Shown here piece after piece: positions 8,467-10,623 of a DNA stretch of 56,737 bases. Position 1 is the first letter of the stretch. Every line of letters starts with the position of its first letter. Location of the stretch: positions 1 to 56,737 of the forward strand of contig JBGSIS010000003.1 of assembly GCA_041742395.1 (NCBI GenBank), given 5' to 3'. The position numbers and the translations under genes were made by a program. The notes beneath the pieces were generated by a model. It ran no database searches. It was not told the DNA's origin and was given only the letters and a program-made list of their open reading frames with translations. Source of the stretch: Candidatus Saccharimonadales bacterium. Its GTDB lineage: Bacteria; Patescibacteriota; Saccharimonadia; Saccharimonadales; JACQNP01.

Positions 8467-10484
8467 GTAGTCAGGATGCCGCTAAAAGAGTTGAAAGCCT
8501 CATAGGATTACTTAACCAGTATTCCTATGAATATCATGTCCTAGATAATCCAACTGTTTCAGATGCAGTGTATGACGGTTTAATTCAAGAGTTGAAGACT
8601 ATAGAAAATGATTTCCCTGATCTTGTGAGGCAAACATCTCCTACTCAAAGAGTTGGGGGTGAGCTTTTAGGTCAATTTAAAAAAGTTAGTCATTCATCAA
8701 GGATGCTTAGTTTAAATGATGTTTTTAGCAAAGATGATATTGAATCCTGGATAAAAAGAGTCGATAAACTTTTACCTGGCAATACTCACGAGTTCTTTAC
8801 TGACATTAAAATGGACGGATTAGGGTGTGCTCTAATTTACCAAGATGGAGAGTTTATTCAAGCAGTAACAAGGGGTGATAGTTATGTTGGCGAAGATGTT
8901 ACTCAAAATGTTAGAACGATTCAGAATGTTCCTTTGCGACTTAGAAAAGCTAAGGGTTTTGAAAAATTACTTACAGGTAAGTGTGAAATTCGTGGCGAGA
9001 TTTTAATCTATAAGACAGATTTTGAAAAATTAAATCACGAAAGGGAAGCAAAAGGACTTCCAATATTTGCAAATCCTAGAAACTTGGCTGCAGGCACAAT
9101 TAGACAGCTAGATCCAAAATTAGTTGCCGAAAGACCCCTCAAATTTAGGGCATATGATCTAGTTAGCGAAAATTTTGAGCTTTTGCCTTCTCATATTAGC
9201 GTTTACGAGGCTATTAGTAGTTTGGGCGTTGCTGTAAATCAGCAGGCAAGTGTATTTACTAGCTTGGAAAAAGTTATGAACTTTGTCGAACTGTGGGAAA
9301 CTAAAAGACACGACTTGCCGTTTAACACCGATGGTCTTGTTATAAAAGTTAACGATAGAAGTATCTATAAAGAATTAGGTATTGTAGGTAAAAACCCCAG
9401 AGGAGCTGTAGCATATAAGTATCCAGCTGAACAAACTACGACAATACTTAAGGATATTGTAATTAGCATTGGTAGAACAGGTGCAGCTACTCCTGTAGCT
9501 GTTTTTGATCCAGTAATTCTAGCGGGTACAACTGTCAAGCATGCAAGTTTGCATAACGCTGACGAGATTGCCCGAAAAGACATTCGTATTGGTGATACAG
9601 TTATCGTGTATAAGGCTGGTGATATTATTCCTCAAGTAGAAAATATTATTGAGTCATTAAGACCAAAACATTCTAGTCCGTTTAGTATGGAAAAAGAACT
9701 CTCTAGGCAATATCCTGAGTTGGAGTTTGTAAGGCCTGAGGGTGAAGTGGTTTATCGTGTCAAGGGAGTTACTGGACCGATCCTACTTAAGAAAGCTTTG
9801 ATTCATTTTGCAAGCAAGGGTGCTCTGGATATTGATACACTTGGAGAAAAAAATATTGAAGCACTAGTTGATGCTAGTTTAGTTAAAGATTTGGCCGATA
9901 TTTTTATTCTAAGTAAAGAAGATGTTTTGAAGCTAGATAGATTTGCCGAACTATCTGCAGAAAACTTAATAAATGCTATTAATGAAAAAAGAAACGTCGG
10001 CTTAGCTAGGTTTTTATATGGATTGGGAATTAGACATGTGGGTGCACAGACTGCAGTAGATTTGTCCAATAAGTTTAAAAGACTAGATACATTGGGAACG
10101 GTCACTTATGATGATCTTAGGTCTGTTGAGGGAGTTGGCGAGATTGTTGCAGAATCAATTTTAGCCTGGTTCGCTGATACAGATAACGAAGAGTTATTGG
10201 CTAAATTCAAAAGAATTGGTGTTTGGCCTGAAGAAGTCAAAAATACTACAGGAAAGCTTTTAGGGTTTAAATTTGTAGTATCGGGTACACTAGAATCTAT
10301 GGGAAGAGATTTAGCAGCGGAAAAGATTAGATCTCTTGGTGGTACTTTTCAGAATAGTGTAGGTAAGGATACAAATTACTTGGTTACTGGTGAAAAAGTA
10401 GGAGCTAGTAAAATAAAAAAAGCGGAGCAATTTGGAACGAAAATAGTAAACGAAAAAGATTTTTTAAAAATTATTAATAATTGA
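8463..10484 (+). CDS. ligA: NAD-dependent DNA ligase
   Basis: SPTQRVG, KMDG, TRGD..GEDVT, ANPRN.AAG, HhH repeats, C-terminal BRCT. Confidence 0.97.
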
Positions 10485-10517
10485 CAAAAATATAATTTGT
10501 TATAAGCTTAAGCTATA

Positions 10518-10591
10518 TCGTGCGCACAGCGGCGACTGTTTGAAACAAAAATAAAAAAAACAAACTCCCGCCGCAGGGTGGGCGCGCACGA
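10518..10591 (+). ncRNA. Candidate structured small RNA of unknown family
   Basis: Nested stems TCGTGCGC/GCGCACGA, GCGGCG/CGCCGC, GTTTG/CAAAC around an 18-nt A-rich loop; TTGACA(10481)-16 nt-TAAGCT upstream; terminator downstream. Confidence 0.6.
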
Positions 10592-10592
10592 G

Positions 10593-10623
10593 ATAGAGAT
10601 CTGTCGACAGATCTCTATTTTTT
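10593..10623 (+). terminator. Intrinsic terminator (perfect 26-bp palindrome + T tract)
   Basis: ATAGAGATCTGTCGACAGATCTCTAT followed by TTTTT. Confidence 0.8.

Follow-up and report, generated by a model that had tools for sequence, protein, structure and literature searches.

Several kinds of structured or regulatory RNA are the closest described counterparts of the element considered here. In the RNA of the signal recognition particle (SRP), a GNRA tetraloop caps helix 8 and is accompanied by conserved symmetric and asymmetric internal loops. 6S RNA is a rod of about 150-200 nt, in which a large central bubble lies between two long helical arms. The small RNAs (sRNAs) that are embedded in a 3' untranslated region (3'-UTR) and have an internal promoter (type I, for example DapZ and MicL) are Hfq-dependent seed-pairing regulators in enterobacteria, and CsrB/RsmZ and Y RNA exemplify the scaffold or sponge RNAs that bind proteins. 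Here, we describe an element from a Candidatus Saccharimonadales bacterium, found in a 56,737-nucleotide stretch of DNA (contig JBGSIS010000003.1 of assembly GCA_041742395.1; the whole stretch is called the window below). The element occupies positions 10481-10623 of the forward strand, between ligA and a tRNA-Ala(GGC) gene; its promoter is followed by a GC-rich hairpin rod, whose apical loop is A-rich, and then by a terminator in the form of a 26-nt palindrome.

This part of the window is very probably a gene for a structured non-coding RNA (ncRNA), and we are equally confident that the RNA represents a new family, absent from Rfam 15. Judged from sequence comparison, it would be a new family of a known kind, the stand-alone structured bacterial sRNA, with an architecture reminiscent of 4.5S RNA, although none of the features that define 4.5S RNA was found in it. 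For the picture as a whole we lean, if only slightly, toward an independent small structured ncRNA gene that founds a new family restricted to one order and displays two motifs to a conserved partner.

Conservation and covariation of the RNA

A sequence-only reading of the window had pictured a stand-alone structured non-coding RNA of about 100 nt and had proposed a collection of homologues and a covariation check; the RNA, of roughly 80-110 nt, proved to be both conserved and covarying. Two covariance models were used, R1 from the six genomes of the window's family and R2, a second model, from 81 hits. The RNA is present in 6/6 genomes of that family (the window's own included), with 79-84% identity. 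Across 141 sampled genomes of the order, R1 matches 84 and R2 matches 94, the latter including one genome (G037) that was counted only; among the 141, 123 are high-quality genomes, and R2 matches 82 of these. Each R2-positive genome of the order has a single match, save one with an extra weak match of 29 bits, and the window's genome likewise has one copy of the RNA, which is not a repeat there. The f64 family, which has more closed genomes than any other in the sample, carries the RNA in 21 of 24 genomes.

The family is limited to one order of Patescibacteria, as far as it has been sampled. In a class sample, R2 matched 38 of 46 genomes from the same order versus 1 of 104 from other orders, and in a phylum sample the corresponding figures were 6 of 7 and 0 of 143. 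A strict pattern, composed of the 5' strand of the outer stem P1, a gap, and a bulge followed by the P1 3' strand, was scanned over species-representative genomes and found in at least 118 stretches/species. Among the 80 pattern matches listed, 72 are titled Candidatus Saccharibacteria, Saccharimonadales, Saccharimonadia, Saccharimonadota or Saccharimonas, and the other 8 have generic or other names. The sole model match outside the order (locus L242, G309:C2:74077-74156, minus strand, 31.7 bits) keeps AAACAAACA and GGUGGGC. The DNA around it is rich in G+C and lacks the customary promoter and terminator, and the match could reflect either a distant member or chance.

The sequence-only reading had also described a promoter, three nested stems, an 18-nt loop and a 26-nt palindrome with a T tract, and all of these are present (Table 1). 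The RNA core has a G+C content of 52%, versus 36.8% for the genome. Positions 10510-10630 of the forward strand fold with -48.5 kcal/mol (z = -7.2), and none of 200 shuffles was as good. The opposite strand folds nearly equally well (-48.0 kcal/mol, z = -6.05), so that the fold alone gives no strand; the promoter, the terminator and the orientation of the homologues do.

Two of the stems, P1 and the inner stem P2, are kept across the order. When 88 sequences were aligned to R2, with 13 modelled pairs, 98.7% of 1138 cells were paired and 12 of the 13 pairs showed compensatory changes (129 cells), in what is a model-fitted alignment. None of 500 shuffles reached any of the observed measures, and in slid controls, where the partner was shifted by 1-3 columns, the paired share fell to 20-55%. 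Compensatory changes were seen in 7 of the 8 pairs of P1 and in all five modelled pairs of P2. P2 has been swapped wholesale between lineages, with GCGGCG/CGCCGC, GGCUC/GAGCC and GGGGC/GCCCC as examples. An alignment of 26 diverse members made with MAFFT and analysed with RNAalifold, which was not model-fitted, recovered 7 pairs of P1, 6 of them with compensatory changes. In single-sequence folds, P1 formed in 70/88 and P2 in 65/88.

Other parts of the rod are more variable. The core ranges from 69 to 113 nt (mean 81), and the apical loop of relatives is A-rich and 20-60 nt long. Elsewhere in the order, P2 is often extended by a C-C mismatch followed by GUG/CAC, judging by column counts over the 88 sequences. 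The third stem of the sequence-only reading (GUUUG/CAAAC) did not hold up as a family feature: it is confined to the window's family, where it is broken without compensation (3 unpaired of 30 cells), and the other members of the order have not retained it. One member (L102) has an extra hairpin between two A-rich tracts, which creates an A-rich bubble.

Could the conserved feature be an element of the DNA, such as a protein-binding site or a bidirectional terminator, or else a small protein gene, rather than a functional RNA? The two strands fold about equally, as noted above; P1 is nearly palindromic, so that in 5 loci the reverse strand, too, receives a weak model score (21-31 bits); and a frame of 29 codons opens on the minus strand in the window. 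The compensatory changes, however, include strand-specific G-U pairs (UG and GU classes), the forward strand of the window's locus scores 95.7 bits with R1 and 86 bits with R2 as against 27 bits for the reverse strand (R1), and the orientation of promoter and terminator is conserved. Open reading frames (ORFs) are conserved on neither strand: the longest ones differ in frame, sequence and peptide, and the core length modulo 3 is flat (29/26/33), in keeping with the sequence-only statement that there is no credible ORF. A small-protein gene was rejected on these counts, and we give almost no credence to either form of this explanation.

Transcription and neighbouring genes

The RNA would form its own transcription unit, to judge from the sequence around it: its promoter is of the sigma-70 type, with a -35 box that forms part of the end of ligA. 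A -35 box of the TTGACN type, a spacer of 16-18 nt and a -10 box TANNNT (mostly TATGCT) stand 5-11 nt before the start of the model in 54/88 loci. The window's own -10 box, TAAGCT, has only 3 of 6 positions in common with TATAAT and is weaker than that of the relatives. Given the promoter spacing, the transcript is predicted to start near 10515-10517. At the other end, a hairpin of -8 kcal/mol or lower with a T run was found in 55/88 loci, and each of the six family genomes has a hairpin with a T run at the terminator position, the sequences being all different. It is their conservation in relatives that supports both the promoter and the terminator. About 12 diverged members have a T run directly after P1, and in those members P1 itself would therefore be the terminator stem.

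The two flanking genes are frequent but not fixed neighbours. Upstream of the RNA, and on its strand, 59/88 loci have a LigA C-terminus, whereas ligA is not the upstream neighbour in the other 29. Six extra loci (five of the f64 group and one from another order) also have no ligA upstream, and the five f64 loci show no ligA nearby. On the downstream side, tRNA-Ala is the commonest neighbour and lies within 200 nt in 40/88 loci; it shares the strand of the RNA in 21 of these and is on the opposite strand in 19. Of the remaining 48 loci, one has tRNA-Val within that distance and 47 are free of tRNA over the same interval. In relatives, boxes that resemble TACAAT stand before tRNA-Ala. In the window, the -35-like TCGACA of tRNA-Ala sits in the loop of the RNA's terminator, so that the terminator and the next promoter are interleaved within 40 bases. 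In one relative (L005/L029, G001:C31), a run of N begins at the expected tRNA-Ala position 3' of the RNA; the genome of the window contains no N.

This variable setting bears on whether the RNA is a cis element, either an attenuator or riboswitch-like leader of tRNA-Ala or a 3'-UTR structure that terminates and stabilises the ligA mRNA. The arrangement in the window, with all three genes on one strand, would suit such a role, as would the frequency of ligA upstream and the terminator that it shares. A further hint comes from a CAYC box, found in 51/88 sequences immediately before the 3' strand of P2, which could pair with GGGUG in the 3' bulge as an alternative to P2 and thus suggests two conformations. 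In this CACCN/N'GGUG pairing the fifth pair is complementary in 44/51 sequences, including 4 U-A and 4 G-C variants, a count confounded with P2 because the covarying base is shared. The members in which P1 is directly followed by a T run may be counted on the same side.

Against a cis role stand the conserved promoter directly upstream of the RNA in 54 loci, the full terminator between the RNA and tRNA-Ala, and the promoter-like site that tRNA-Ala itself possesses. It is also difficult to reconcile with the loci in which tRNA-Ala is on the opposite strand or further than 200 nt away, or in which ligA is not upstream, the six extra loci among them. Moreover, the CAYC box is missing in 37/88 sequences and the fifth pair is mismatched in 7/51. 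An attenuator that controls read-through into tRNA-Ala, one of the roles suggested by the sequence-only reading, is unlikely on the basis of the tRNA-Ala promoter and its scattered positions, and a cis element of any of these types is, in our estimate, very unlikely. The RNA quite probably acts in trans, and our mechanism assumes that it would do so rather than serve as a cis-regulatory leader.

The T-box antiterminator (RF00230) is a known cis element for comparison. Like it, the RNA offers an alternative GGGUG pairing and often lies beside a tRNA gene. In contrast to a T-box, it has no Stem I, specifier loop or K-turn, and it carries its bulge on the 3' strand, where a T-box has it on the 5' strand. 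It also has a promoter and a terminator to itself, and no aminoacyl-tRNA synthetase or amino-acid gene lies downstream of it: what follows on its 3' side is the terminator and then a tRNA gene or unrelated genes. No match to RF00230 was found at E up to 10, in the window element or in 20 homologue loci. The type I 3'-UTR sRNAs resemble the RNA in their gene arrangement, with a promoter inside the end of the upstream coding gene and a terminator shared with its mRNA. The differences are the rigid covarying rod, the detachment from ligA in 29/88 loci, and the fact that Hfq (PF17209) was not found in the window's genome, in a search whose control was positive in the matching 5 of 14 reference genomes. 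Any pairing by the RNA would be Hfq-independent, since no Hfq gene was found.

Relationship to SRP and 6S RNA

Searches against known families are in keeping with the novelty of the ncRNA that the sequence-only reading had proposed. With Rfam 15, only tRNAs reach the gathering score in the window, and at E up to 10 no relevant family was found for positions 10380-10760 or for 20 diverse homologue loci. No description of the RNA was found in the literature searched in full text, supplements being outside the search.

The sequence-only reading had nevertheless suggested a reduced analogue of SRP or 6S RNA, and the likeness to 4.5S RNA (RF00169) deserves attention. Both are single-copy stable-RNA genes of about 80-110 nt with a strong promoter, one long G+C-rich rod and conserved internal-loop nucleotides. 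In addition, RF00169 and the 6S family (RF00013) were not found elsewhere in the window's genome, whereas RNase P RNA, tmRNA and 5S rRNA were all found there. The RNA also shares with 6S RNA the arrangement of a stand-alone sRNA gene of the abundant type, with unpaired A-rich strands between helices, and by analogy it would bind a protein machine; the A-rich bubble made by the inserted hairpin of L102 adds to the resemblance. One could therefore imagine a degenerate remnant or functional analogue of either RNA.

The likeness appears superficial, however. Neither SRP-family nor 6S models match at E up to 10, in the window or in 20 diverse homologues. The RNA has no GNRA tetraloop and none of the symmetric and asymmetric loops of domain IV; in their place stands an A-rich apical loop of at least 18 nt. 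Compared with 6S RNA, it has about half the length, its unpaired A-rich part is mostly a terminal loop, and it lacks long helices on both sides of a central bubble, its two helices of about 8 and 6-9 bp being too short to mimic an open promoter. The negative result for RF00013 in the window's genome came from an insensitive search, in which the control was positive in only 5 of 14 genomes.

The protein partners of SRP RNA, Ffh and FtsY, were not found in the window's genome either. RF00169 has no match anywhere in the window's genome, with a control that was positive in 12 of 14 reference genomes. There are 0 candidates there for the Ffh M domain (PF02978) and none for TIGR00959; the search with PF00448 returned just a P-loop fragment of 19.6 bits and no true SRP54 GTPase, and the DTAGR motif is absent from all six frames. 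No Ffh, FtsY or SRP RNA was found in 31 relatives, which gave P-loop fragments of at most 22.2 bits only. In the phylum samples, PF00448 was found in 0/151 genomes (E up to 1e-10) and RF00169 in 0/150. The SRP system thus seems to be absent altogether from the window's genome, from the sampled Saccharimonadales and from the wider phylum sample. Loss of ffh and ffs has been described for Parcubacteria in a passage of an earlier paper (PMC4508563), and the present searches extend it to these groups. The RNA is confined to one order, in contrast to the phylum-wide loss of SRP. Taken as a remnant or analogue of SRP or 6S RNA, the element would be a highly improbable case, and neither of the two suggestions of the sequence-only reading is supported by these comparisons.

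The invariant motifs and their putative partner

Two single-stranded motifs, one in the bulge and one in the apical loop, are unchanged over more than 70 families. In the bulge (N)GGGUGGGC, GGUG and the final G are found in 88/88 sequences, G at the fifth position in 84/88 and the following C in 80/88; the strand that it faces is variable and has 2-7 bases across the order. In the loop motif AAAYAAAMA (alignment columns 54-63), the A positions have at least 95% A over the 88 sequences, and the motif is unpaired in 66/88 single-sequence folds. A second A-rich tract usually follows AAAYAAAMA, and the f64 type retains one AAAACAAACA motif only.

What might such an RNA do? A rigid covarying rod that carries motifs invariant over so many families fits a scaffold for an equally conserved partner. 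In the mechanism that we propose, the stable rod would act as a scaffold that displays the bulge and the AAAYAAAMA loop motif to a putative conserved partner. This would most likely be a protein or else a ribonucleoprotein, the ribosome for example, and the RNA would be its platform or decoy. That the RNA is a partner-binding scaffold or decoy is a tentative proposal, well short of probable; a protein decoy, which the sequence-only reading had named among its options, is a possible form of it. CsrB/RsmZ and Y RNA supply the analogy, in that conserved single-stranded motifs are set on stable helices in a non-coding RNA that acts in trans. In contrast to those RNAs, the present one has no GGA repeats and no Ro-binding bulged helix; it has one G-rich and one or two A-rich motifs, and no Rfam match.

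The main competing explanation is that the RNA is a base-pairing riboregulator, in which the G-rich bulge, with or without the A-rich loop, would be a seed for a pyrimidine-rich RNA. Its targets might be the anti-Shine-Dalgarno tail of 16S rRNA, C-rich sites in mRNAs, or the 3' ends of tRNAs, where the RNA, acting in trans, would contact the CCA much as a T-box or RNase P does. GGUGGGC is the exact Watson-Crick complement of GCCCACC, the 3' end (to C75) of 7 of the 38 tRNA genes (four Leu, one Ile and two Val). An eighth tRNA, Val(UAC), ends in ACCCACC, which pairs with GGUGGGC at 6 of 7 positions, and GGUGG pairs with the CCACC of tRNA-Ala, the commonest neighbour of the RNA. We also count in favour of pairing the heptamer AGGGUGG, which the RNA shares with the T-box consensus; in T-boxes it is the core of the motif that contacts the NCCA end of tRNA. 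Finally, order-wide invariance of an 8-nt unpaired motif would be expected of a seed against a conserved RNA.

Several observations argue against this. A mature tRNA is single-stranded at ACCA only, and pairing over more than 3 bp needs the acceptor stem to be opened. Outside the RNA, GCCCACCC occurs 10 times in the genome versus about 5 expected (a base-composition estimate, unshuffled), with no common context. The Shine-Dalgarno consensus of the genome is the ordinary AAGGAGG and not GGGUGG, and a scan of the rRNA contig for complements with G-U allowed was uninformative, with hundreds of trivial matches. The missing T-box match and the missing Stem I or specifier architecture also count here. 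Because the motif never varies, there is no covariation with a target to be read. On balance, we regard a riboregulator as an unlikely alternative, if one to be taken seriously.

A more specific version of a trans-acting rod can also be considered, in which the bulge would capture either tRNAs, by the 3' ends that bear CCA, or the anti-Shine-Dalgarno tail of 16S rRNA, while the CA/A-rich loop would mimic an mRNA leader. The RNA might then be a housekeeping-level ribonucleoprotein component or a translation-linked RNA invented in Saccharimonadales. We consider this improbable. If true, the RNA would serve as a sensor or a buffer for the pool of uncharged tRNA or of free 30S subunits, and it would be a stand-alone counterpart of the T-box or a ribosome decoy, in bacteria that are also without SRP.

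Returning to the independent ncRNA gene with two displayed motifs, a number of points weigh against it. The count of 12 compensatory pairs rests on an alignment fitted to the model, and the MAFFT and RNAalifold run with 26 sequences did not recover P2, because the spacing of its 5' strand varies. Within the window's family there is almost no covariation (1 pair), and 149/500 shuffles of the six genomes were as good. The 5' and 3' ends of the RNA are predictions, and a simple consensus scanner called neither the RNA promoter nor the palindromic terminator in the window's genome. In the single-sequence minimum-energy folds, at least 5 of the 6 bases of the GGUGGG hexamer are unpaired in only 16/88, so that the single-strandedness of the bulge rests on the consensus model. 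No R2 match was found in 47/141 genomes of the order, closed genomes among them, and in the negative genomes the RNA is either dispensable or diverged beyond the model. In 5 of the RNA-negative genomes no diverged copy was found 3' of ligA, which is directly followed by other genes. The partner, lastly, is putative.

Set beside these points is the conservation itself. The RNA is kept in about two-thirds of the sampled species of the order, as a single-copy gene with a strong promoter and two unchanged motifs. As far as sequence can indicate, such conservation speaks for a molecular partner that is itself conserved and for a role of importance to the cell.

Saccharibacteria (TM7) are ultra-small epibionts, widespread in the environment and in the human mouth. 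For TM7x, a passage of a transcriptome preprint speaks of 'no currently validated small RNAs' (bioRxiv 10.1101/2022.03.25.485537), and genome-wide essentiality surveys are reported in a Saccharibacterium in a review (PMC11665869). In light of those surveys and of the carriage of the RNA by 21 of the 24 f64 genomes, its function should be testable. The family is missing from Rfam 15, and its addition would improve the annotation of these genomes.

Features of the locus and observations on the genome

The features of the locus are collected in Table 1. The ligA ORF contains all four LigA domains, which Pfam names DNA_ligase_aden, DNA_ligase_OB, HHH_2 and BRCT. Three further ORFs flank the locus, at 7528-8463, 10824-11774 and 11818-13425 (312, 317 and 536 aa), and none of them has a Pfam match at E up to 1e-5.

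Table 1. Features in and around the RNA gene, by position in the window
Feature	Position	Strand	Remarks
ligA (NAD-dependent DNA ligase)	8463..10484	+	673-codon ORF with stop TGA at 10482-10484; upstream neighbour of the RNA
-35 box TTGACA	10481..10486	+	overlaps the last codons and TGA stop of ligA; invariant in 6 family genomes
-10 box TAAGCT	10503..10508	+	16-nt spacer after the -35 box; TATGCT in most relatives
Conserved RNA core	10515..10593	+	covariance-model match: R1, 95.7 bits; R2, 86 bits, E 3.5e-19
P1 5' strand TCGTGCGC (as RNA UCGUGCGC)	10518..10525	+	partner 10584-10591
Variable 5' strand facing the bulge, here ACA	10526-10528	+	
P2 5' strand GCGGCG	10529..10534	+	partner 10569-10574
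Third stem of the sequence-only reading, GTTTG/CAAAC	10538-10542 with 10561-10565	+	
A-rich apical loop	10543-10560	+	18 nt (16 A, 1 C, 1 T)
Single-stranded motif AAAYAAAMA, here AAACAAAAA	10543..10551	+	5' side of the apical region; nearly invariant
P2 3' strand CGCCGC	10569..10574	+	compensatory changes
3' bulge GGGUGGGC	10576..10583	+	between P1 and P2; nearly invariant
P1 3' strand GCGCACGA	10584..10591	+	compensatory changes
Intrinsic terminator	10593..10623	+	perfect 26-nt palindrome at 10593-10618 (self reverse match) and T tract to 10623; also serves ligA read-through
tRNA-Ala promoter-like site	10604..10632	+	TCGACA, 17 nt, TAAAAT; 10/12 consensus matches
tRNA-Ala(GGC)	10648..10724	+	frequent, not obligatory neighbour

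The genome of the window (G000) has 1.10 Mb in 34 contigs and is 98.8% complete, and a few of its other properties emerged during the analysis. On contig C6, positions 1740-1913 contain tRNA-Ile and tRNA-Ala(UGC); the sarcin-ricin-loop motif of 23S rRNA is at 13038, and 5S rRNA is at 13469-13585. The distance of about 11 kb from the spacer tRNAs to the 23S end suggests large insertions in the 23S gene. A 16S rRNA was not found in the assembly with two standard motifs, and the DNA upstream of tRNA-Ile did not look rRNA-like on reading. Among 662 long ORFs, 121 have TATAA between -20 and -4 relative to the start codon, beside the ordinary AAGGAGG, which suggests that many mRNA leaders are very short or absent. 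Finally, ARAGORN found only 38 tRNA genes in this genome, all with an encoded CCA end, and both tRNA-Lys genes and three tRNA-Thr genes have U at the discriminator position.

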